From Erysipelotrichaceae bacterium MTC7 (GTDB lineage Bacteria; Bacillota_I; Bacilli_A; Erysipelotrichales; Erysipelotrichaceae), in the NCBI GenBank assembly GCA_001695645.1, contig LVZN01000002.1:52417-84416 (forward strand): 32,000 nt of DNA. Direction: 5' to 3'. The position numbers were made by a program, and so were the translations under genes. The notes beneath the pieces are model-generated. The model was not told where the DNA came from and ran no database searches. It saw only the letters and a program-made list of their open reading frames with translations. Below, piece by piece: positions 16,545-31,887 of this stretch (the stretch's first letter is position 1; the number at the start of each line of letters is the position of its first letter).

Positions 16545-19015
16545 TGGACACATTAAAGGGAAAGAAAATCATGGTGTGGACGTTCATGGGCAACACCAGA
16601 ATGTATAACGCTCTGCGTGACTACGGCGACCGCATCAGCCAGATCGGACTTTTCTCCTTCAAGGTCAGGGCTACTGGGGAGATTTACGAGAGCGGCGTGG
16701 CGATTTCCAATATGCTCACCTACATCAACCGCTATCCTCATATCAAGTGGCTTTTGACCGTAGCGAATGACGGAGCGAACAGCATCTTCAAAGCCCTGCG
16801 GGACAACACGAACGGAGCGCAGGATATGTTCCTCTCGGAACTTGTCCGCATCATGCAGAAATATCCGTGGTGTGACGGCATCGACATCGACCTCGAAAAA
16901 GGCGATGGCTATTCCACGCATGAAGCGTCCACGGCGATGTTCCGCAATATCTACAACACGGTCAAGAATTACGATTCTTCCAAGATGATGAATATCTGCC
17001 TGCCGGGTATGACTTCGGTCAACGGCTCGGTCGGCGGTGAGAACTGGTGCGTATATGCCGACCTCAACAATTACTGCGATACCGCGTCTATCATGAGCTA
17101 CGGCATGGCATGGGCAGGCTCAGCGCCGGGACCGGTGTCCCCGCGTTCCTGGCTTGAGGGTATCTACGATTATGCCTCCGAGGTCATGGACACGGAGAAG
17201 GTGTTCCTCGGTATGCCCGCCTACGGCTGGAACTGGCAGATCTACGACCTGCCGTCCAATATCGGAAAGACCTATCGCGGTACATCACAGACCTACTATG
17301 CGGCGCAGAACTGGCTGAAGGGTGTGTATAACTTCACGGACGATCAGCCGCCGCAACCGTTCATCCCATTCGTGGGATATTGGGACGATAACAACAAGGT
17401 GCCGTGGGCGCTCCCTCATGTGTACGACTACATGGAAGGACGGGACGCCGACAGCTACGAGTACCCGCAGATGTCCGGGACATACAATGGCAGGCACTAT
17501 CTGACCGCATACAGCAAGCAGCAGAAAACGGAGTTTGAAAACATCATCGTTGACCATGACGGCGCCAACTACGCCAGCGCATCCGGCATCGTATCCATCG
17601 AGAACGGTGTCGCCACACTTGGTGATGAAGGAGCGGTCACTTACCAATTTACCGTCAGCACGGCGGGAACCTACGATGTAGCGGTGCGGCTCTGTTATCC
17701 CTTCTGGGACAAGAACGGCATCTATGTGTCGCTGGACGGAACGACTACGCACTTTACGGAGAGCCGCCTGTGGTGGCCGTACTGGAGGACTACCTTCTGG
17801 ACTGCGCTTGCAAGCGGCGTGAGCCTTTCCGCAGGAACGCATACCATAAAGATTTCAGTCGATGTGAAGGGCGTACAGTTTTACGGTTTCCGCGTTTGCT
17901 CGTCCTTTTCGGAAGAGCCGTCCGCAGGAGAAGCGACCTATTCTTTTTCCCCACGGCAGTTCAAGGATGTGGAGGGCAACATGGTCGGTCCCGACCGTGG
18001 TTTCCGTCTCACCTTGGAAATGCTCCGAAGAAAGCCGGACTCGGCTCTTATCTGGTACGAGGACTTCCGTGACTACGGCGTGTTGGAGACAAACTACTGG
18101 ACGGTGCTGTCAGGTTCCTTTACCGTGTGGCGGTCAGATGAATACTCCACGGAGCGCGTCTACTCCCAGCTTGACGGCAGCGGTCAGCTTGCATGGAAGT
18201 ATGACGGCTTTTCGGATATCCACCTCCGGGCAAGGCTGGCATTCCCGGCAAGCGGCAGCGGCAAGGCAGGCATATTCTGCGGTGATCTGTTCTGCTGTCT
18301 GAATTACAATAGTCAGGCGGTGGAACTTTACAACGGCTCCACGCTCCTCGGCAGCTACAGTCAGGAGATCACGAGGACGCCGACCACAGACCTTCGTGAC
18401 GATCCGAATATGTACACGGTTGAGATGCGTATCCGTGGAAACAGGGTGCGCGTGTATTCCGGCTCCTCCTATACGCTGCGGTTTACGGCAACGGTCAGCG
18501 GCTTCTCCGGCGGCTATGCCGGGTACCGCTCCGACAATCGGACGGTATGCGAACTGATGCGCCTGGGTGACGCCTGGACATACGAGCCGTATGAGCGGTT
18601 CGATGTGGTGATGCCAGACGGAACGACAAAATCCTACGGCCGCATCAGCAGGAGCAACTGCACATGGGACAGCGAGTTCCAAGTATTCACGCTGACTGCC
18701 GATGTGGAGGAATCAAGCACTCGGAGCGAGGACATCTCGATGGACTACGACTTTTCCCATTCGGATGATATGACTTCGCTTTCCTGCGGCAACGACTATC
18801 AGGCAACGGTCATCCCCGTGGACATCAACATCTGGATATCCCGCCTGTTCCTCGGTGACGCGGACGGCTTCTCCATCCTCTACTACCAAGACGTGGACTC
18901 CCTCATCTATTGGGCGAACGAGGCGGCTTATCGGTGGAATCTCCGGGGAATGTGTATGTGGTCCCTTGGGCAGGAGGATCTGCGGCTGTGGGAGTGGCTG
19001 CCGAAACAGGTCTGA
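16544..19015 (+). CDS. tail fibre/host-recognition protein with N-terminal GH18 glycoside-hydrolase domain plus CBM-like and LamG-like domains
   Basis: The GH18 catalytic motif DGIDIDLE is at nt 16874-16897. SIMSYGMAW and LGMPAYGWNW strands are present. The middle region has a CBM6/35-like pattern (GTYDVAVRL...LSAGTHTIKISV). The C-terminal part is LamG/DUF1080-like. Confidence 0.8.
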   Translation: MDTLKGKKIMVWTFMGNTRMYNALRDYGDRISQIGLFSFKVRATGEIYESGVAISNMLTYINRYPHIKWLLTVANDGANSIFKALRDNTNGAQDMFLSELVRIMQKYPWCDGIDIDLEKGDGYSTHEASTAMFRNIYNTVKNYDSSKMMNICLPGMTSVNGSVGGENWCVYADLNNYCDTASIMSYGMAWAGSAPGPVSPRSWLEGIYDYASEVMDTEKVFLGMPAYGWNWQIYDLPSNIGKTYRGTSQTYYAAQNWLKGVYNFTDDQPPQPFIPFVGYWDDNNKVPWALPHVYDYMEGRDADSYEYPQMSGTYNGRHYLTAYSKQQKTEFENIIVDHDGANYASASGIVSIENGVATLGDEGAVTYQFTVSTAGTYDVAVRLCYPFWDKNGIYVSLDGTTTHFTESRLWWPYWRTTFWTALASGVSLSAGTHTIKISVDVKGVQFYGFRVCSSFSEEPSAGEATYSFSPRQFKDVEGNMVGPDRGFRLTLEMLRRKPDSALIWYEDFRDYGVLETNYWTVLSGSFTVWRSDEYSTERVYSQLDGSGQLAWKYDGFSDIHLRARLAFPASGSGKAGIFCGDLFCCLNYNSQAVELYNGSTLLGSYSQEITRTPTTDLRDDPNMYTVEMRIRGNRVRVYSGSSYTLRFTATVSGFSGGYAGYRSDNRTVCELMRLGDAWTYEPYERFDVVMPDGTTKSYGRISRSNCTWDSEFQVFTLTADVEESSTRSEDISMDYDFSHSDDMTSLSCGNDYQATVIPVDINIWISRLFLGDADGFSILYYQDVDSLIYWANEAAYRWNLRGMCMWSLGQEDLRLWEWLPKQV

Positions 19016-22293: not shown

Positions 22294-24201
22294 ATGCCGA
22301 AAATCACGAGAATCAAGCCGGGTATCAAGGCACTCCCGGCAAAGAAAAAAGTGGCGGCCTACGCAAGGGTCTCCAAGGACACCGAGCGGCTGCTTCACTC
22401 CGTTTCCGCACAGGTAAGCTATTACAGCGATCTCATCCAGAAGAATCCGGAATGGGAATATGCAGGCGTGTACGCTGACTCCGGCATAACAGGCACTCTC
22501 GTCGCAGGACGCAGTGAGTTCGGACGGTTGCTGGAGGACTGCGAGGCTGGCAAGATTGACATCATCCTTTGCAAGTCGATTTCCAGGTTTGCGAGAAACA
22601 CGGTCGATCTGCTGAATACGGTCAGACATTTGAAGGACATCGGTGTGGAGGTTCGGTTCGAGAAAGAGCAGATCAATTCGATGAGCGGGGATGGAGAACT
22701 GATGCTTTCCATCCTCGCTTCTTTTGCCCAGGAAGAGAGCCGGAGCATTTCCGAAAATGTGAAATGGGGCATCCACAAGCGGTTCAAAAACGGAGAGATC
22801 GGTGCGGCAAACAAGCACATCCTTGGCTACCGGTACGATGATGAACTGAAAAAGTATGTCATCATTCCCGAAGAAGCCGAGGCGGTCAGATGGATGTTCC
22901 AGATGTACATCGATGGCGTTACCCTGCGGGACATTGCGGATAGCATGAACAATGCGGGCATCCGTACCACGCTGGGAAATGACTTTCAGGAAGCCTCAGT
23001 ACGGCAGCTGATTTTCAACGAGGTCTATGCCGGGGATATCCGCCGACAGAAATGCTACATCGAAGATCCCATCACCAAAAGGAAGGTGCCAAATCGCGGA
23101 GAGCTGCCGCAGTATTACATGGCAGACAGCCACGAGGCTATCATCGACCGCGACACCTACGCAAAGGTAAAAGCGGAAATGGAGCGACGGGCTTCGCTGC
23201 TGAATCCGACATATTGCTTTACGGGAAAGTTCAAATGCGCCGTATGCGGGGCGAACTTTACGAGGAAGAAAGGCAGGGTCAGGGGCAAGGAATATGTGGA
23301 CTGGATCTGCCGCAGCAAAAAAGAGCCTGGAGTCACCTGCAAGAGCCACAATTATCCTGAACATAAGCTGATGGATATTTGCGCCGAACTGATGGAAACG
23401 GACGGATTCGATGAAGAAGCGTTCGAGAGGAATGTTAAGCAGATCACCTCGCTTGCGGACGGCAGTATTGAGATGCAGCTTTATGGCGGCGAGGTCAGAC
23501 AGTGGCAGATGCCGCCAAAGCCGGTCAAGCCGAAGAAAATAAAGCCGGAGAGCAAGCGTCCAAGAAACCTGTTCGACGGGAAAATCTTCTGCGGCAAGTG
23601 TGGCAGACGGTTTGGCAGAGCCATCAGCGATACAACGGACGGCGGTCACCTTTACTGGTACTGCCGAGCAAAGAGCAATCACGGAATCACCTGCGACAGT
23701 GTCAACTATCCCGATTCAGAGATCAGGGACATCTTCTGCCGGGTCATGGGGAAGAAAACCTTTGACGAGGATTACTTCACAAAAACGGTCGACCGCATGG
23801 TGGTTCAAGCCTCCGGCAGTATTGACTTTCATCTGAAGGACGGCACGGTCAAGACATATGAGACGCTCAAGCTGCGGAGCAACAGGCACGAGACCACATC
23901 CACGGATGAGTTCACCGGGATGATTCGGTGCGCCTGCTGCGGAAACATTTACCACAGATACTGCGGATACGGAAAGTACGTTTACTGGCGATGCTCCGGC
24001 AAGCACAAGGTCAGGACGGAATGCAACGGGCAGGACCTGGCGGATTTCAACATCCGTAAGGTTTCCGCCTACATTCTCGGCATGGATGATTTTGACGGGA
24101 AAGCATTCACGGAGCAGATCGACCACATCACAGCATTGGAAGACGGAAGTCTGGAATACTTTTTTAAAGACAGGAGGGCAAAAAAGTGGCAAAGAACGTA
24201 A
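22294..24201 (+). CDS. large serine recombinase 1 (635 aa) with a triplicated zinc-ribbon module
   Basis: The catalytic N-terminus reads KKVAAYARVSKD ... YADSGITGT ... SISRFARNT ... LASFAQEESRSISENVKWG. A recombinase domain follows, then three ~95-aa Cys4 modules. Confidence 0.9.
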   Translation: MPKITRIKPGIKALPAKKKVAAYARVSKDTERLLHSVSAQVSYYSDLIQKNPEWEYAGVYADSGITGTLVAGRSEFGRLLEDCEAGKIDIILCKSISRFARNTVDLLNTVRHLKDIGVEVRFEKEQINSMSGDGELMLSILASFAQEESRSISENVKWGIHKRFKNGEIGAANKHILGYRYDDELKKYVIIPEEAEAVRWMFQMYIDGVTLRDIADSMNNAGIRTTLGNDFQEASVRQLIFNEVYAGDIRRQKCYIEDPITKRKVPNRGELPQYYMADSHEAIIDRDTYAKVKAEMERRASLLNPTYCFTGKFKCAVCGANFTRKKGRVRGKEYVDWICRSKKEPGVTCKSHNYPEHKLMDICAELMETDGFDEEAFERNVKQITSLADGSIEMQLYGGEVRQWQMPPKPVKPKKIKPESKRPRNLFDGKIFCGKCGRRFGRAISDTTDGGHLYWYCRAKSNHGITCDSVNYPDSEIRDIFCRVMGKKTFDEDYFTKTVDRMVVQASGSIDFHLKDGTVKTYETLKLRSNRHETTSTDEFTGMIRCACCGNIYHRYCGYGKYVYWRCSGKHKVRTECNGQDLADFNIRKVSAYILGMDDFDGKAFTEQIDHITALEDGSLEYFFKDRRAKKWQRT

Positions 24202-25766
24202 TCACAATACCCGCCACCATCAGCAAGTTCACAGCCTCTCCCCTCGGCAGCAGGAAAAAGCGGAAGGTTGCCGCCTATGCCCGCGTTTCAACGGACAGGG
24301 ACGAACAGCTGACGAGCTACGAGGCACAGGTGGACTACTACACGAATTACATCAAAGGGCGCGAGGATTGGGAGTTTGTCGCCGTGTATGCTGACGAAGG
24401 CATAACCGGCTGCAATACGACGCATAGAGACGGTTTCAATTCTATGGTCGAGGATGCCCTGGCGGGAAGAATCGACCTCATCGTGACAAAAAGCGTGAGC
24501 CGCTTCGCAAGGAACACGGTAGACAGCCTTACGACCATCCGAAAGCTGAAGGAGAACGGCACGGAGTGCTATTTCGAGAAGGAGAACATCTGGACATTTG
24601 ACGGCAAGGGCGAATTGCTCCTGACCATCATGTCAAGCCTTGCACAGGAAGAGAGCCGCTCCATTTCGGAGAACTGCACCTGGGGACAGAGAAAGCGTTT
24701 CCAGGACGGCAAGGTCACGGTGCCGTTCAAGCGTTTCCTCGGATACGACCGGGGCGAGGACGGCAACCTGGTGGTAAACGAGGAGCAGGCGGTCATCGTC
24801 CGCAGAATCTACGGGCTTTTCCTGCAGGGAAAAACACCGTATGCGATTGCGCGGCAGCTCACCGAGGAGGGCATCCCGACGCCGGGCGGTAAAAAGAACT
24901 GGGGCAAGAAAACGGTCGAGAGCATACTTACCAACGAAAAGTACAAAGGCGACGCCCTGCTCCAGAAGGTCTACACTACGGACTTCCTGACAAAGAAAAA
25001 GAAGAAGAACGAGGGCGAGGTGCCGCAATACTATGTGGAAGGAAACCATGAAGCGATTATCCCTCCCGCACAGTTTGACAGGGTGCAGAAGGAGATGCAG
25101 AGACGGTTCGGTGATACGGACCGGCACGGCTGCGTGAGCATTTTCTCCAGCAAAATCCGATGCGGTGACTGCGGCGGCTTTTACGGCTCGAAGGTGTGGC
25201 ACTCCAATGACAAGTACAGAAAAGTCATATGGCGGTGCAATCACAAGTACGATGACGGAAAGAACTGCTCCACGCCTCATTTGGACGAGGACACCATCAA
25301 GGCATTGTACCTCAAAGCCCTGCGGATTCTCGGAGAGGAGCGGGACGAGATCATCGCCACCTTTGAAGCCATCAAGGACAAGATGTACGATACCACGGAG
25401 CTGGAGACAGAACAGGCAGCCTTGCAACAGGAGGTCATGGTGGTAACGGAACTGGTCGAGCAGTGCATCAGCGAGAACGCCCATGTTGCACAGAATCAGA
25501 AGGATTACCAAAAGAAGTATGATGCTCTCTCCGAACGCTATGACAGGACAAAGGAACGGCTGGATAAGGTCAGCGGCAGGATCATGGAGCGTCAGGCAAA
25601 GCGGGAAATGATCGAGGCGTTCCTTCATGACCTGGCAGAGATGGATGAGGATGTACAGGAATTCACGGATGACCTTTGGTTCAACCTTCTCGACCATGTG
25701 ACGGTTTTCTCGAAGAAGGATGTGCGCTTCACCTTCAAGAACGGGACGGAGATCAGTGTGAAATAA
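24186..25766 (+). CDS. large serine recombinase 2 (526 aa)
   Basis: GTG start lies 8 nt after GGAGGG and overlaps recombinase 1 by 16 nt. The catalytic region reads VAAYARVSTDRDEQ ... YADEGITG ... SVSRFARNT. It has a single Zn ribbon (CGDCGG...WRCNHKY...C), a long coiled-coil segment, and a DUF4368-like C-terminus. Confidence 0.9.
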   Translation: MAKNVITIPATISKFTASPLGSRKKRKVAAYARVSTDRDEQLTSYEAQVDYYTNYIKGREDWEFVAVYADEGITGCNTTHRDGFNSMVEDALAGRIDLIVTKSVSRFARNTVDSLTTIRKLKENGTECYFEKENIWTFDGKGELLLTIMSSLAQEESRSISENCTWGQRKRFQDGKVTVPFKRFLGYDRGEDGNLVVNEEQAVIVRRIYGLFLQGKTPYAIARQLTEEGIPTPGGKKNWGKKTVESILTNEKYKGDALLQKVYTTDFLTKKKKKNEGEVPQYYVEGNHEAIIPPAQFDRVQKEMQRRFGDTDRHGCVSIFSSKIRCGDCGGFYGSKVWHSNDKYRKVIWRCNHKYDDGKNCSTPHLDEDTIKALYLKALRILGEERDEIIATFEAIKDKMYDTTELETEQAALQQEVMVVTELVEQCISENAHVAQNQKDYQKKYDALSERYDRTKERLDKVSGRIMERQAKREMIEAFLHDLAEMDEDVQEFTDDLWFNLLDHVTVFSKKDVRFTFKNGTEISVK

Positions 25767-25781
25767 CGGCAGCAGAACACG

Positions 25782-25820
25782 GCCGGACACCTTGCGGATT
25801 GCGGGATGTCCGGCTTTCTC
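25782..25820 (+). terminator. terminator-like hairpin after recombinase 2
   Basis: Stem GCCGGACA / TGTCCGGC (8 bp), a 17-nt loop, then TTTCTC. The weak T-tract limits confidence to moderate. Confidence 0.45.
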
Positions 25821-25822
25821 TA

Positions 25823-25954
25823 TGCAAAATTAAAATGTACGGCAACAGCAGAGCAAGGCAAAATTATAAAGTATGGCAAAATCAAAAAGTGTAGGGCAAA
25901 GTTAAAAGGTTCAAGGCAAAATCAAAAGGTATAGGGGCAAAATGTAATTGTATC
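25823..25954 (+). repeat. iteron-like array of ~18-21 bp direct repeats
   Basis: Five clear units are visible: GGCAAAATTATAAAGTAT (25857), GGCAAAATCAAAAAGTGTAG (25875), GGCAAAGTTAAAAGGTTCAA (25895), GGCAAAATCAAAAGGTATAG (25915) and GGGCAAAATGTAATTGTATC (25935). Weaker units lie at 25823 and 25841. Confidence 0.8.
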
Positions 25955-25957
25955 GCT

Positions 25958-27325
25958 TTGGGATACTACTTAGATGATGGTATCTCCGGTACAAACACTA
26001 AAAAGCGTGACGAATTTAATCGTATGATTGCAGAGTGTATGGATGGTAACATCGACATGGTTATTACTAAATCCATCAGCCGATTTGCACGTAACACCCT
26101 AGACTGCCTTCAATATATTAGACAGCTCAAAGATAAGAACATATCCGTCTACTTTGAAAAAGAGAATATCAACACCATGGATGCCAAAGGTGAGGTTTTG
26201 CTGACTATTATGGCATCTTTGGCACAACAGGAAAGCCAGAGCCTTTCACAAAACGTTAAGCTTGGGCTACAGTACCGATACCAACAAGGAAAGGTGCAGG
26301 TCAACCATAAGCGGTTTATGGGCTACACGAAAGATGAAGATGGAAATTTAATTATTGTCTCCGAAGAAGCTGAGATTATCAAACGCATCTACCGAGAATA
26401 CCTTGAAGGTCAGAGTCTAGTAGGCATTGGTCGAGGCCTTGAAAAGGATGGTATTTTAACAGCAGCAGGAAAACCAAGATGGCGACCGGAATCGGTTAAG
26501 AAGATCCTCCAAAATGAAAAATACATCGGAGATGCCCTTCTGCAAAAGACTGTCACAGTAGATTTTCTAACCAAGAAACGAGTTAAGAATGAAGGTCATC
26601 TTCCCCAGTATTATGTTGAAAATAGCCATGAGGCGATTATTCCTAAAGAGTTATTTTTGCAGGTGCAGGAAGAGATTCATCGAAGAAGCAATATCTACAC
26701 AGGAGAAGGCAAGAACAAACGAATTTATAGTAGCAAGTATGCTTTAAGTGCCATCACCTTCTGTGGAGATTGTGGCGATATTTATAGGAGAACCTATTGG
26801 AATATTCATGGTAGAAAAGAATTTGTCTGGCGATGCGTGACTAGAATCGAGCAAGGTCCTGAAGTTTGTAAGAACCGAACCGTAAAAGAAGATAAACTCT
26901 ATGGTGCTGTAATGACCGCAATTAATAAGCTACTTGCAGGTGGCAACAACATGATAAAGACCCTGGAAGAGAACATTCATGCTGTGATTGGTGAAACGAC
27001 AGAATACCAAATTTCAGAGATTAACAACTTACTGGAGGAAAAGCAAAAAGAACTTATCAAGCTGGCGAACAAGGGTCAAGACTATGAACACCTAGCAGAT
27101 GAGATTGATGAGCTGAGAGACAAGCGACAGATCCTTTTAGTAGAAGATGCCTCCCTCAGTGGCGAGAACGAGCGAATCAATGAGCTGATTGAATTTATCC
27201 GCAAGAACAAATTCCGCACCTTAGAATATGATGATAAGCTTGTAAGGAAGATAATCCAGAGCGTTACAGTCTATGAAGACCACTTCGTCATAGCCTTCAA
27301 ATCTGGCATCGAAATGGAAATATGA
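25958..27325 (+). pseudogene. 5'-truncated large serine recombinase (AT-rich; lacks the catalytic-Ser segment)
   Basis: The ORF begins inside the catalytic domain at [19 protein letters not shown], equivalent to residues ~66 onward of recombinase 2. No YARVS-type nucleophile motif is present, and the only start is an artefactual TTG. The rest is intact ([23 protein letters not shown], Zn ribbon CGDCG...WRC, coiled coil, DUF4368-like end). Confidence 0.8.
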
Positions 27326-27466: not shown

Positions 27467-27691
27467 ATGACTACGGCAGAAATGATTAAAGAACTGTGTG
27501 AGCAAATGAATATAAGTGTTTCCGAACTTGCTAGACGTATTGGCCAGACTCCACAGAATTTCAATAAAAAATTACAACGAGAAACAGTAACCTTGGATGA
27601 GTTGAAGGCCATTGCTGATGTGCTAGGTGTCAAGTTTGTGCAGGCATTTATTTTACCAGATGGAGAAGAAATAAAAATATCTAACGAATAA
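27467..27691 (+). CDS. XRE-family helix-turn-helix transcriptional regulator (74 aa)
   Basis: RBS GGAGGTG. The HTH segment ISVSELARRIGQTPQNFNKKLQRETVTLDELKAIADVLGV is typical of the XRE family. Confidence 0.8.
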   Translation: MTTAEMIKELCEQMNISVSELARRIGQTPQNFNKKLQRETVTLDELKAIADVLGVKFVQAFILPDGEEIKISNE

Positions 27692-27705
27692 AGGAGGATG
27701 TTTAT

Positions 27706-28575
27706 ATGGTAGGTAATATTATTAAATCAGTAGCAGAGAAATTATCCTCTCTGTCTTATATAGAAGGTATTGTTTTAGGTGGTTCACGTGCAAGGGGCAC
27801 CCATACAGAGGATTCGGATATAGATATCGGCATCTATTACAATTCAGAATCATTTGACATAAATACTATTAATCAATTCGCTACAAAGCTGGATGATGAG
27901 CATAGAAATAACCTTGTTGTACCTCCCGGAGCATGGGGTGATTGGATTAATGGCGGCGGATGGTTAGTCATAAACGGGTATCATGTGGATTTAATTTTAC
28001 GTGATATTAAACGTGTGGAACAAATAATGAAAGATACAGAGCACGGAATTGTTACTGCCAATTATCAGACTGGGCATCCCCATGGTTATATTAGTGCAAT
28101 GTATCGAGGAGAATTAGCGATTAGCAAAATACTATATGCTAAGAATGAAAGCTTATGCGAATTAAAAAAACAGGCAGAAACTTATCCCAATGCTTTGCAG
28201 AAAAGTTTAGTTAACTTTTTTATGTTTGAAGCAGGGTTCTCTTTAATGTTTGTAAAAGCAAATTCGGGAACAGACGATAAATATTATATTGCGGGTCATG
28301 TTTTTCGTATAGTTTCATGTTTAAATCAAGTGTTATTTGCATGTAATAATGCTTATTGTATCAACGAAAAGAAAGCTATAAAACTGCTTGAAACTTTTGA
28401 ACATAAACCTGAAAAATATACCGAGAAGGTAAATCATATTTTTGAAGTACTCGGTATCTCACTTTTTGAATGCTACGACATGACCGAGAAGCTTTATAAT
28501 GAAGTGAATGAAATTGTATCGGAGATAAATAACTTTTTAAACGAGGAGAGTTCAGATGAAAGAAAACAAATATGA
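27706..28575 (+). CDS. nucleotidyltransferase-domain protein (NTase N-terminus with helical C-terminal domain), substrate unknown
   Basis: RBS AAGGAGG. The pol-beta-type NTase motif is GGSRARGTHTEDSDIDIGIY. By recollection it is the orf found upstream of the methyltransferase and aadE in Tn5405/pRE25-type clusters. Confidence 0.8.
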   Translation: MVGNIIKSVAEKLSSLSYIEGIVLGGSRARGTHTEDSDIDIGIYYNSESFDINTINQFATKLDDEHRNNLVVPPGAWGDWINGGGWLVINGYHVDLILRDIKRVEQIMKDTEHGIVTANYQTGHPHGYISAMYRGELAISKILYAKNESLCELKKQAETYPNALQKSLVNFFMFEAGFSLMFVKANSGTDDKYYIAGHVFRIVSCLNQVLFACNNAYCINEKKAIKLLETFEHKPEKYTEKVNHIFEVLGISLFECYDMTEKLYNEVNEIVSEINNFLNEESSDERKQI

Positions 28576-29290
28576 TGATAATATATTTTTTCAAAAATAC
28601 AGTCAAATGAGTCGCTCGCAGAAAGGACTGGCTGGTGCGGGAGAATGGGAGACTTTGAAAAAGATGCTACCTGATTTTAAGGGTAAGCGTGTGCTTGATT
28701 TAGGATGCGGCTATGGATGGCACTGTATATATGCGATGGAAAACGGTGCTTCCTCTGTAGTAGGTGTTGATATTTCTCATAAAATGCTCGAAGTAGCAAA
28801 AGGAAAAACCCATTTTCCACAGATTGAATATGAATGCTGTGCCATAGAAGATGTGGATTTCCCAGAGGAGAGCTTTGATGTAATACTAAGTTCGCTTGCG
28901 TTTCATTATGTAGCAGACTATGAGAATTTAATAAAAAAGATATATAGGATGCTGAAGGCTGGTGGCAATTTAGTTTTTACAGTTGAACATCCTGTTTTTA
29001 CTGCTCATGGAACACAAGACTGGTATTATAACGAAAAAGGAGAAATACTGCATTTCCCGGTGGACAATTATTATTATGAGGGCAAACGGACAGCTATGTT
29101 TTTGGAAGAAAAGGTTACAAAATATCATAGAACACTGACCACATATCTAAATACACTGCTTTCAAATAGTTTTATAATAAATCAGATTGTGGAGCCACAG
29201 CCGCCAGAGAACATGATGGATATTCCGGGGATGGCGGATGAAATGCGACGCCCAATGATGCTGATTGTATCGGCAAAAAAGAAGATGTAA
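28556..29290 (+). CDS. class I SAM-dependent methyltransferase
   Basis: SAM-binding motif I is VLDLGCGYGW, with downstream FDVILSSLAFHYV and LKAGGNLVFTVEHP. It overlaps the upstream gene by 20 nt. Confidence 0.85.
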   Translation: MKENKYDDNIFFQKYSQMSRSQKGLAGAGEWETLKKMLPDFKGKRVLDLGCGYGWHCIYAMENGASSVVGVDISHKMLEVAKGKTHFPQIEYECCAIEDVDFPEESFDVILSSLAFHYVADYENLIKKIYRMLKAGGNLVFTVEHPVFTAHGTQDWYYNEKGEILHFPVDNYYYEGKRTAMFLEEKVTKYHRTLTTYLNTLLSNSFIINQIVEPQPPENMMDIPGMADEMRRPMMLIVSAKKKM

Positions 29291-29322
29291 TAATATAGAA
29301 AAAATAAACGAGGAGTATGTAA

Positions 29323-30186
29323 ATGAGATCAGAAAAAGAAATGATGGATTTAGTACTTTCTTTAGCAGAACAGGATGAACGTATTCGAATTGTGACCCTT
29401 GAGGGGTCACGCGCAAATATTAATATACCTAAAGATGAATTTCAGGATTATGATATTACATATTTTGTAAGTGATATAGAACCGTTTATATCTAATGATG
29501 ACTGGCTTAATCAATTTGGGAATATAATAATGATGCAAAAGCCGGAGGATATGGAATTATTCCCACCTGAAGAAAAGGGATTTTCCTATCTTATGCTATT
29601 TGATGATTACAATAAAATTGATCTTACCTTATTGCCCTTGGAAGAGTTAGATAATTACCTAAAGGGCGATAAATTAATAAAGGTTCTAATTGATAAAGAT
29701 TGTAGAATTAAAAGGGACATAGTTCCGACTGATATAGATTATCATGTAAGAAAGCCAAGCGCAAGGGAGTATGATGATTGCTGCAATGAATTTTGGAATG
29801 TAACACCTTATGTTATTAAAGGATTGTGCCGCAAAGAGATACTGTTTGCAATCGATCATCTGAACCAGATTCTACGGTTTGAACTACTTAGGATGATGTC
29901 GTGGAAGGTTGGGATAAAGACAGAATTTTCATTAAGTGTTGGGAAAAATTATAAGTATATTAACAAATACATTGATGAAGATCTATGGAATAGATTATTA
30001 TCTACATATCGCATGGATTCCTATGAAAATATTTGGAAGTCATTATTTATATGCCACCAATTGTTCAGGGAAGTGTCCAAAGAGGTAGCAGAACTACTGG
30101 GGTTTGATTATCCAGAGTATGGTAAGAACATAACAAGATATACCGAGGACATGTATAAAAAATATGTTGAAAATGACTATTTTTAA
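29323..30186 (+). CDS. aadE: aminoglycoside 6-nucleotidyltransferase ANT(6)-I (streptomycin resistance)
   Basis: The N-terminal ~190 aa (MRSEKEMMDLVLSLAEQDERIRIVTLEGSRANINIPKDEFQDYDITYFVSD...) matches my recollection of AadE/ANT(6)-Ia almost verbatim. Synteny with the methyltransferase upstream and apt-spw downstream supports the call. Confidence 0.9.
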   Translation: MRSEKEMMDLVLSLAEQDERIRIVTLEGSRANINIPKDEFQDYDITYFVSDIEPFISNDDWLNQFGNIIMMQKPEDMELFPPEEKGFSYLMLFDDYNKIDLTLLPLEELDNYLKGDKLIKVLIDKDCRIKRDIVPTDIDYHVRKPSAREYDDCCNEFWNVTPYVIKGLCRKEILFAIDHLNQILRFELLRMMSWKVGIKTEFSLSVGKNYKYINKYIDEDLWNRLLSTYRMDSYENIWKSLFICHQLFREVSKEVAELLGFDYPEYGKNITRYTEDMYKKYVENDYF

Positions 30187-30229
30187 AGATTAGCAAAGAT
30201 TATTAACCATAAGCAAGGGGTGTAAATGT

Positions 30230-30757
30230 ATGGAAAGTACTGATGTTATAAATGAAATTAGAGGTATATTACCTCGTAACTCAATTGGAAAATATGATTT
30301 ACTAACTATTTTTACACATAAAACCGTTTTTGATAAAATTGTAAAAGTACTATCATTGGATTTTCAAAATAAAGTAGATTATGTGGCTGCCCCAGAAGCA
30401 ATTGGATGGATACTAGGCACTGCCATAGCCAAAGAACTTGGAGTGGGGTTTATTGGAGTAAGAAAAGGTGATAAGCTGCCATACGCAAAAGAAGAGATTA
30501 TTTCGACACATTTTACCGACTATTCAGGTCAAGATAAAAGCTTTGAAATATCTAAGAGTTCTATTGTGAGGAACAAAAGAGTTTTGATTGTAGATGATTG
30601 GATAGAGACAGGTTCTCAAATGAAGGCTTTAATAGCTTTGTTAGAGAAATTGGATTGCAGCATTATTGGGTTGGCTACTATTGGGATTGATATAAATGAG
30701 GTTACTCAAAAATGGATAGACAGCAGTTTTGTAGCTTATATTGGCTCAAACATATAA
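30230..30757 (+). CDS. apt: adenine phosphoribosyltransferase-like (type I PRTase) protein
   Basis: The PRPP-binding motif is VLIVDDWIETGSQ. The size is 175 aa. Its position between aadE and spw matches the published aadE-apt-spw cluster. Confidence 0.8.
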   Translation: MESTDVINEIRGILPRNSIGKYDLLTIFTHKTVFDKIVKVLSLDFQNKVDYVAAPEAIGWILGTAIAKELGVGFIGVRKGDKLPYAKEEIISTHFTDYSGQDKSFEISKSSIVRNKRVLIVDDWIETGSQMKALIALLEKLDCSIIGLATIGIDINEVTQKWIDSSFVAYIGSNI

Positions 30758-30888
30758 TAAACCGAAAGAAAATCTTGAATCAAAATTTTGGATGGCGTTA
30801 ATTTACAATACAACGAAAGATGTTTACTCTTTTTTTATAAATTTTAAGAGGCGTTAAAAAACAGTTTTCAGACGAAAGGAGATCGAAG

Positions 30889-31677
30889 TTGAGTATAGAT
30901 TTAAGTAACAAAAAAATTCCGAAAGAAGCAATTCAAGCATTAAAAACTATAGCGGAACTACTTGATAATATGTTAATTGGGGTGTATTTGTATGGTTCGG
31001 CAGTAATGGGTGGTTTACGTATGAATAGCGATGTAGATATTTTGGTAATAACAAATCAAAGTTTATCTGAAAAAACTCGAAGGAATCTTACAAATAGGTT
31101 AATGCTTATATCTGGGAAAATAGGAAACATAAAAGATATGAGGCCTCTTGAAGTTACGGTCATAAATCAAAAGGATATTGTCCCTTGGCATTTCCCCCCC
31201 AAATATGAATTTATGTATGGCGAGTGGCTAAGAGAGCAGTTTGAAAAGGGAGAAATTCCTGAGTCGACTTATGATCCGGATTTAGCAATACTTTTAGCAC
31301 AACTAAGAAAAAATAGTATTAACCTTTTGGGACCAAAGGCAACAGAAGTAATTGAGCCTGTGCCAATGACAGATATTCGAAAAGCAATTAAAGAATCGTT
31401 GCCCGGGTTGATAACTAGCATTAAAGGTGACGAACGCAATGTGATTTTAACTTTAGCCAGAATGTGGGTGACAGCATCTACTGGTGAAATCAGATCAAAA
31501 GATCTGGCAGCTGAATGGGCAATACCTCAATTACCTTATGAGCATGCCATTTTACTTGACAAAGCAAGAAAGGCTTATCTAGGAGGGTATATTGATAAGT
31601 GGAAAGGAATGGATTCTGAGGTGACTGAACTCGTTAATAATATGAAGAAGTCTATAGAGTCTTCCCTTAATCTCTAA
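30889..31677 (+). CDS. spw: spectinomycin 9-O-nucleotidyltransferase ANT(9)
   Basis: TTG start lies 8 nt after AGGAG. It shows clear collinear similarity to Tn554 Aad9/Spc as I recall it (GVYLYGSAV.GGLR..SDVDILV, RPLEVTVIN, YDPDLAILLAQ.RKNSI.L.GP, IKGDERNVILTLARMW). The spw assignment rests on synteny. Confidence 0.85.
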   Translation: MSIDLSNKKIPKEAIQALKTIAELLDNMLIGVYLYGSAVMGGLRMNSDVDILVITNQSLSEKTRRNLTNRLMLISGKIGNIKDMRPLEVTVINQKDIVPWHFPPKYEFMYGEWLREQFEKGEIPESTYDPDLAILLAQLRKNSINLLGPKATEVIEPVPMTDIRKAIKESLPGLITSIKGDERNVILTLARMWVTASTGEIRSKDLAAEWAIPQLPYEHAILLDKARKAYLGGYIDKWKGMDSEVTELVNNMKKSIESSLNL

Positions 31678-31689
31678 AAGGCTGGTGTT

Positions 31690-31887
31690 GAGAATTCCAT
31701 TGATAGGTTCTCTCATACCGAAATTTCTTAAAATGGTCAAAAACCGCTGGATATGTTCCCGTCTACCGATAGTTCCAAAAATGCTGCTGATATGTTTCCA
31801 CAGACGGGCAAAGTAATATGACATCAATGCCATCAACTCGAGCCATGTGGAAAGTGTTGTTGTCCTAAAAACAATCAAGTAAATCAT
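31690..31887 (-). other. unassigned minus-strand ORF fragment (possible gene remnant)
   Basis: This is the only open frame in the 31.68-31.89 kb gap, part of track ORF 31579..31887. It has no SD that I can see and no recognised family. Its 3' part overlaps spw and is certainly not coding. Confidence 0.15.

Follow-up and report, generated by a model that had tools for sequence, protein, structure and literature searches.

The 32,000-nucleotide stretch of DNA from Erysipelotrichaceae bacterium MTC7 analyzed here (the window, to which all unlabeled coordinates refer) carries the right part of a GC-rich tailed prophage followed directly by AT-rich DNA with antibiotic resistance genes. We found that positions 25973-25974, where the two meet, are very probably the crossover of the right attachment site (attR) of a temperate phage of ~52.5 kb that is integrated in recC, which encodes a large serine recombinase (LSR) and belongs to a resistance element. 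This reading is supported by phage sequence that is invariant up to 25974 and by flanks that differ from copy to copy beyond it. A prophage inside a recombinase gene had been one of two explanations offered by an earlier, sequence-only reading of the window, and this part of it stood; that recombinase genes are a regular target of the phage had not been foreseen. With less confidence, we favor the view that the integrase of this phage family has as its natural bacterial attachment site (attB) the DNA for a motif that is conserved in the catalytic domain of its own enzyme family. Sequence comparison, in our view, shows where the junction lies, what the target gene looks like when intact, that this choice of target is general, and that junctions of both types exist. 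The features that carry the argument are the following.

1-25974, + strand: right ~26 kb of a GC-rich (~54%) tailed prophage (open reading frames; Pfam-labeled gene order identical on many public contigs)
22294-24201, + strand: int1, a 635-aa LSR (Pfam Resolvase, Recombinase and three Zn_ribbon_recom domains)
24186-25766, + strand: int2, a 526-aa LSR whose gene overlaps int1 by 16 nt (Pfam)
25943-25972, + strand: P arm of the phage attachment site (attP) kept in attR, TGTAATTGTATCGCTTTGGGATACTACTTA (invariant in all copies)
25973-25974, + strand: crossover dinucleotide GA (last base pair common to all phage copies, first bases shared with intact recC)
25975-27325, + strand: 3' part of recC, covering residues 71-520 (nucleotide identity of 94-98% with the intact genes of loci L001, L002 and L003; Pfam; splice test)

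The right junction

The 208 nt that follow the int2 stop codon are invariant in eight aligned copies of the phage and end …GGGATACTACTTAGA / …TTGGGATACTACTTAGA at window position 25974, beyond which the eight copies diverge completely. Some ~280 blocks of the assembly collection encode the identical Int2 protein, with seven different neighborhoods returned, and other copies of the identical phage continue after 25974 into wholly different DNA, for example, in neighborhoods with sulfatase, PPDK or glycosidase genes. The int2 stop (25766) lies 207 nt before the crossover, and the LSR genes thus stand at the end of the element, adjoining the attachment site. On the right-hand side, homology to intact recC begins at 25972 (…A↓GATGATGGTATCTC…; arrows mark cut points here and below), in codon 71 of the intact gene, and the GA of this codon is the crossover itself. 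For the recC target taken alone, AG at 25972-25973 would also be compatible as the crossover; a GA core is present at all 22 right and all 10 left junctions described below. The alignments show a conservative, oriented and codon-locked junction at this GA core, LSR genes adjoining attP, targets split at both ends and many independent targets. Around the GA, the P arm and the reverse complement of the P' arm form an imperfect inverted repeat with 20 matches (TTGTATC…TTGGG…), and their alignment score of 24 compares with 10.3±4.3 in 500 shuffles, one of which scored as high.

The right attachment site of the prophage had been placed earlier within 25767-25957. An attR is indeed found in this region, but its crossover lies ~16 nt to the right of that interval, which holds a hairpin and six repeats, all of them phage sequence:

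25781-25822, + strand: terminator-like hairpin with a T-rich tail 3' of int2 (scan and direct reading of the sequence)
25823-25956, + strand: six direct repeats of ~20 bp (GGCAAAAT plus 12 nt) on the phage side of attP (repeat search and Tandem Repeats Finder)

The GGCAAAAT repeats are invariant in all eight aligned copies, and the array ends 17 nt from the core. Being invariant phage sequence, they were rejected as an attachment core or as part of the target. Because the sequence to the left is non-coding, we also rejected the idea that the junction arose by homologous recombination between recombinase genes. A relative (L123 9219-9276) has four copies of TGCACACGGT at the position of the P-side repeats, and the P' side (L204 4001-4103) has an array of its own, with five TGACAACA units at an exact 21-bp spacing, which precede a helix-turn-helix (HTH) gene and lie ~130 nt from the core. 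The arrays flanking attP may be binding sites for an accessory factor, for Int1 or for a repressor.

The interrupted target gene and its intact form

The GC content, determined per 500-nt window, is 0.47-0.60 (mostly 0.52-0.58) over 1-25500, 0.46 at 25501-26000 and 0.32-0.42 from 26000 to the end, and its single lasting step falls at ~25.8-26.0 kb. The switch that had been judged by eye at ~25.8 kb is thereby borne out, with a drop from ~54% to 33-42%. The left side had been called uniformly GC-rich; the lasting step is real, but the left side is not strictly uniform, as it dips to 0.47 at 11-12 kb and at 21.5-22.5 kb.

Three LSR genes lie in tandem on the + strand, at 22294-24201, at 24186-25766 and in the truncated open reading frame (ORF) 25958-27325 (455 aa). 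The last of these is, as first read, the first AT-rich gene and a 5'-truncated LSR: its Pfam Resolvase match is restricted to profile positions 37-144 and is followed by full-length Recombinase (PF07508, E=1.9e-24) and Zn_ribbon_recom (PF13408, E=7.8e-13) domains. Codons 1-5 of this ORF (TTG GGA TAC TAC TTA) are phage DNA and not recombinase, for which reason the ORF start at 25958 was rejected as the truncation point. The other 450 codons are open and both downstream domains are complete, in agreement with the view that the rest of the gene is intact. Compared with the intact 520-aa homologue (L001 3792-5354), residues 1-70 with the RVS nucleophile motif are absent; the earlier account was right that this motif is gone but put the loss at ~64 residues rather than 70. 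Without the catalytic serine, the truncated product is predicted to be inactive as it stands, and what the window holds is part of a split gene and not a functional member of the LSR family.

The recC gene is the third of a recA-recB-recC module (~520, 137 and 520 aa). From 25972 rightward, the window is 94-98% identical to Enterococcus plasmids, Streptococcus phage Javan630 and Erysipelothrix phage phi1605, in all of which recC is intact and encodes a 520-aa 'site-specific recombinase'. With the 6.4-kb right flank as query, 850 Enterococcus plasmid records matched some part, and 8 covered at least 80%. We spliced the first 212 nt of the L001 gene (L001 3792-4003) to window 25975-27325 and obtained a 1563-nt ORF of 520 codons with no internal stop, whose product is identical to the plasmid protein at 510 of 521 positions. 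Because the splice restores an open 520-codon recC, the pre-insertion attB can be reconstructed as …GAATGGGAGTTTGCTGGCATCTTTGCA GA TGATGGTATCTCCGGTACAAAC…. An independent insertion of the same phage was found in a related recC allele with ~82% nucleotide identity to that of the window (L006 11581-17452), where the cluster downstream is of the ant(6)-sat4-aph(3') type instead of ant(6)-apt-spw.

Three proposals made from the window alone are upheld by these comparisons. The phage does sit in the recombinase gene of a resistance element, its right flank being recC from codon 71 with the resistance gene cargo following; attB could be rebuilt from prophage-free relatives, the 5' end in L001 and the window together restoring the 520-aa ORF; and the elements joined come from different genomic backgrounds, a gut-Clostridia phage and an Enterococcus/Streptococcus-type element.

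Target genes of other phage copies

Right flanks were collected from Int2-bearing loci and from a pattern search of metagenome contigs, which contributed 15 more junctions. Twenty of the 22 distinct right flanks are different LSR genes, entered in frame as D-[D/E]-G-x-[S/T]-…, and the LSR targets are all cut in frame at the conserved motif Y-x-D↓[D/E]-G. Clustering of the 17 right flanks with at least 100 aa gave 15 distinct genes at an identity threshold of 90%, while 11 clusters were left at 70% and 6 at 50%. The six right-flank genes scanned with Pfam all begin at Resolvase position 39, with the Recombinase and Zn-ribbon domains complete. Some target genes also encode DUF4368 and are, in other words, TnpX-like (L008, L012, L101).

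The left end of the phage was reached through a rearranged contig (L103), the first 183 nt of which are a 5' LSR fragment stopping at …IYA + GA, followed by AAGGTAAACCCAAGAATTGATACAAAG, an HTH gene and a radical S-adenosylmethionine (radical-SAM) gene. The HTH protein of this contig, used as a query, led to further left-end contigs, and a pattern search of IMG/VR completed the set. All ten distinct left flanks are 5' fragments (~70 codons) of different LSR genes with the RVS motif; they end …Y-x + GA and continue into the constant P' arm, AA(G/T)GTAAACCCAAGAATTGATACAAAG. In L204, a 513-aa LSR, a 341-aa recombinase and a 71-aa 5' fragment precede the junction, past which come the HTH and radical-SAM genes, variable defense genes, a sigma-like gene, and genes for DUF2800, single-stranded DNA-binding and PolA proteins. 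The same replication module precedes the phage genes of the window in L109 and L004.

In two loci (L201, L202), both halves of one TnpX-like gene (…NVIDEYI↓DDGWSGTNFD…) surround a 2.2-kb deletion remnant of the phage. The remnant, which is found in L199-L203 (e.g., L201 1-2259), consists of the HTH gene, the radical-SAM gene and a PHP fragment, with a left attachment site (attL) and a shortened attR at its ends. Several samples contain it, with one right arm but three different left arms. The mixed left arms probably reflect assembly chimerism across a repeat, or else trans-mobilization.

A GAYGANGG-like motif is expected hundreds of times per genome by chance; that the phage nonetheless uses, almost exclusively, a single codon position of recombinase genes implies that a longer site is recognized. 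In distant Int1-Int2 relatives, the outer P-arm motif GTAATTGTATC is kept while the inner sequences and the targets differ; the shared GTAATTGTATC arm would fit a model in which Int2-type proteins read that arm. In one such relative (L123 9158-9737), the ORF that lies downstream encodes a small serine recombinase and is cut immediately ahead of 'DVIVVKSIDRLGRN', a case that hints at 'recombinase-gene homing' as a wider strategy of the integrase clade. Two others are L145 and L139 (~17950-18300), and the flank in L145 looks like a type I methylase (HsdM-like).

Alternative origins of the junction

In the second explanation of the sequence-only reading, the resistance segment came to adjoin the phage integration module in a separate event, and the recombinase is a dead remnant. 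We considered illegitimate recombination or a deletion mediated by an insertion sequence (IS) as that event, with no relation between the remnant and the phage's integrase. IS1216 and IS256 often cut AT-rich resistance clusters like this one, and some plasmid matches start elsewhere inside recC, for example, at query position 997. The junction in the window, however, is free of any IS, and 19 other recombinase genes beside the same phage end, like the 10 left junctions, are broken at this very codon. Moreover, the relatives that reach this point, plasmids and phages alike, are all intact, and no phage-free record with the codon-71 truncation was found. We therefore consider a separate joining very unlikely.

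An assembly chimera of phage and resistance element in the source assembly is equally hard to credit. The join is at the canonical GA and in frame, like all independent junctions, and the two partners share ~9 nt, too short a stretch for an assembler to collapse. In addition, L006 holds an independent insertion, in a related recC that is followed by a similar resistance cluster. These points count for more with us than the clearly scrambled state of some metagenome contigs with the phage (L103; proteins P0144 and P0160) and the fact that the exact pair of phage and recC allele was not found a second time. Finally, the truncated recombinase and the AT-rich resistance genes might be cargo of the GC-rich phage, with its true end further right (e.g., at ~31857), as three tandem recombinases with downstream resistance cargo in Javan630, phi1605, L211 and L216 could suggest, but this has next to no likelihood, being excluded by identical phage copies with unrelated DNA after 25974 and contradicted by a composition shift of ~15-20 points at the junction and by left ends that carry matching 5' fragments.

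Several observations weigh against integration in recC as the origin of the junction, or against the target choice that we ascribe to the phage. The attL of the window's own prophage lies outside the 32-kb window and was not seen, and the exact attL predicted for its recC allele was absent from IMG/VR and the loci examined. The truncated ORF of the window, with either of two start codons, was not in the assembly index. No attP junction of the excised phage was found in IMG/VR or the loci examined, nor did a recombination directionality factor come to light, and activity is therefore deduced from the distribution of the copies and not observed. Three of the sources (L103, L199 and L200) are short metagenome contigs, rearranged or chimeric, from which only the junction sequences were taken. 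The specificity is also not absolute, since 2 of the 22 right flanks are not LSR genes. Lastly, the phage itself contains a good attB-like site, which a simple model leaves unexplained:

24369-24420, + strand: attB-like site inside the phage's int2 (…GTGTATGCTGA↓CGAAGGCATAACCGG…; also …TATGCTGA↓CGAAGGCATAACCGG…), with its GA at 24393-24394 (weight matrix)

The matrix was built from the observed target arms, with few left arms in training. The int2 site is its best match in the window and scores 42. The true recC site scores 62, and the int1 site, which is weak and has a motif reading D-S-G, scores 16.5. None of the 22 right flanks is an insertion into the int2 site.

The two exceptional right flanks differ in kind. 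In L098 (~820-900), the right end of the phage adjoins AT-rich non-coding intergenic DNA, and in L108 (~1180-1210, - strand), it lies at 'DEEKSG' within an unrelated ORF. Both look like natural pseudo-attB sites.

Proposed integration and excision of the phage

We propose that the junction would have arisen by conservative serine recombination, carried out by one or both of the phage's own LSRs, which are encoded by int1 and int2 directly upstream of attP. Int2, perhaps together with Int1, would catalyze the reaction between attP and attB. The attB would be the DNA that codes for the conserved …φ-Y-x-D↓[D/E]-G-φ-[S/T]-G… stretch, at Resolvase profile position 38/39, and not a host housekeeping site. 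On integration, codons 71-520 of recC would come to lie at attR, and codons 1-70 (ending …GAATGGGAGTTTGCTGGCATCTTTGCAGA) are predicted at attL, ~52.5 kb to the left and ~26.5 kb before the start of the window. While the phage is resident, recC would be inactive because the catalytic serine is absent, and the host element may be immobilized for that time. Serine recombination neither adds nor removes bases, and so excision, if it takes place as we suppose, should restore recC exactly. The predicted products are an attP of sequence …TTGGGATACTACTTAGAAAGGTAAACCCAAG… and a repaired recC of sequence …GGCATCTTTGCAGATGATGGTATCTCC…. The repeat arrays beside attP might have a role in these reactions.

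The AT-rich resistance element

To the right of recC lie six genes assigned by Pfam, which have the same names and order in annotated Enterococcus plasmids and Javan630, and then a point at which similarity is lost:

27467-27691, + strand: HTH regulator
27706-28575, + strand: nucleotidyltransferase
28556-29290, + strand: S-adenosylmethionine (SAM) methyltransferase
29323-30186, + strand: ant(6)-Ia
30230-30757, + strand: phosphoribosyltransferase (apt)
30889-31677, + strand: spw
31845-31857, no strand: end of similarity to every relative of the AT-rich element (BLAST end points in eight loci)

In the Enterococcus plasmid, spw is followed by lsa(E) and lnu(B), neither of which lies within the window. 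L211 and L216, two chromosomal loci, share 99.8% identity with the window over 27690-31857; in both, the recombinase triplet serves another prophage as its integration module, with the resistance genes as the cargo of that prophage. Because the triplet and resistance cargo of L211 and L216 match the window, we assign its AT-rich part, on this similarity, to the right end of a mobile element of the Enterococcus/Streptococcus type. The 3' part of recC and the cargo have the order of the triplet module in the window, and the rest of the module (recA, recB and the start of recC) is predicted beyond the phage. The segment 31845-31857 is probably either the right boundary of the AT-rich element or a further junction.

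Two smaller observations concern spw. A 102-aa ORF on the reverse strand (31579-31887) overlaps its 3' end. The spw product has 262 aa here, compared with 269 aa in the Enterococcus plasmid, and the 262-aa variant is present in 1330 blocks of the collection.

The phage, its integrases and its left arm

The part of the prophage in the window (1-25974) contains genes for terminase, portal, protease, capsid, tail, a GH18 tail protein, holin and endolysin, followed by the integration module; positions 1-25766 hold a complete tailed-phage late region and the two LSR genes. The whole phage measures ~52.5 kb, its left end having been located in L204, and contigs of 52,507 and 52,558 nt agree with this size. 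The phage is known from gut Clostridia assemblies. Its integration module had no match among PLSDB plasmids, only its endolysin region was matched by INPHARED phages (~80%), and a scan of IMG/VR with the phage helicase returned only relatives at 79% identity or less. Two database proteins, P0144 and P0160, fuse the sigma-like protein of the phage to mid-Int2 or to the N-terminus of Lgt; these fusions probably stem from deletions in the phage or from chimeric assembly of it.

By BLASTP, Int1 is 43% identical over 360 aa to RecA of the three-recombinase module, and Int2 is 40% identical over its full length to RecC, the protein of the target gene. The nearest solved structures to Int2 are 3G13 and SprA 9DXH. 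Pfam found no match to DUF4368 in Int1 or Int2, a domain that is found in some of the target genes. Lacking DUF4368, Int1 and Int2 fall outside the TnpX-like multi-targeting clade.

The left arm of the phage family carries interchangeable defense cargo upstream of the sigma-like gene, on the minus strand (L190, L191, L204). In L110 (88-3384), this is a two-gene cassette for a 225-aa protein and an 872-aa helicase-like protein, which we read as putatively Hachiman-like. L190 and L191 have Eco29kI restriction-modification genes together with DUF2326/CTD11/MC7 genes, and L204 has the latter without the restriction-modification pair. The contigs L110, L190 and L191 end within this variable cargo. 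The first gene pair inside the left end encodes an HTH regulator and a 377-aa radical-SAM protein (L103 999-2132; L193 4675-5805), the CxxxCxxC motif of which resembles that of RlmN/Cfr-type enzymes.

Implications

The junction itself is a standard attR; what is unexpected is the choice of target, its generality and the proximity to a resistance cluster. If our view of the target is right, the phage could enter any Firmicute with an LSR-bearing element, a wider host range that follows from the travel of LSR genes on mobile elements across Firmicutes. It could nest in rival integrative and conjugative elements (ICEs), transposons, prophages and resistance islands and keep their recombinases reversibly off. 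The predicted result is a hierarchy in which the phage is parked inside the recombinase gene of another element and acts as a reversible off-switch. Such a phage would have many sites without being unspecific, its site-specific integrase reading a protein-family motif at the level of DNA. The ~30 natural attB variants for one enzyme would also provide a ready-made specificity map for genome engineering.

The phage end is ~1.7 kb from the first cargo gene and ~3.3 kb from ant(6)-Ia, the first named resistance gene. The window is direct evidence that clusters with ant(6)-Ia and spw now stand beside gut-Clostridia phages, presumably inducible ones, which bears on the stability of these clusters and on their possible transduction.

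Comparison with known systems

LSR elements that split coding genes use conservative recombination at a 2-bp core, with the integrase gene beside attP. Like the phage described here, SPbeta with SprA in spsM, skin with SpoIVCA in sigK and the A118-type phages in comK have the integrase at the end of the element beside attP, a 2-bp core and conservative recombination, and a target ORF split between attL and attR, with the exact restoration that we predict for recC (for SprA and SPbeta in spsM, and skin in sigK, see PMC5499854 and PMC5025042). These elements differ from the phage in that each targets one host gene with one LSR gene, whereas the phage has two overlapping LSR genes and targets a motif common to a family of mobile-element genes, with dozens of sites.

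A second likeness is to TnpX of Tn4451 and TndX of Tn5397, whose crossover dinucleotide is also GA and which likewise have many insertion sites per enzyme. In contrast to the phage, with its codon-locked ~40-bp motif and no DUF4368, they use loosely defined AT-rich sites and carry DUF4368; TnpX-like genes are themselves among the phage's targets. Multi-targeting LSRs with a GA or TT core have been described, and DUF4368 is typical of their clade (Durrant et al. 2022, PMC10083194).

Int1 and Int2 are homologous to the outer and inner members of triplet modules like those of Tn1806, the ICESp1108 group and Phi-m46.1-like elements (Ambroset et al. 2016, PMC4701971), with 43% and 40% identity to the members of the target's own triplet. 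Such modules have three genes compared with two in the phage, and the target recC is the third member of one. The triplet modules of streptococcal ICEs insert in mutT, hsdM, rum and the traG of other ICEs (PMC4701971, PMC5053989); a recombinase gene is absent from the target list of PMC4701971.

The resistance genes correspond to the ant(6)-Ia/spw/lsa(E)/lnu(B) cluster of Enterococcus, Staphylococcus and Streptococcus, with the same gene order as 27467-31671 and 95-98% identity. Here, the cluster differs in standing beside a Clostridia-type phage and in being without lsa(E) and lnu(B) in the window. In the open-access literature, we found no published report of LSR genes as an attachment site. 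The integration of LSR elements into coding genes is already known; what is unusual is a family-wide target inside other mobile elements.

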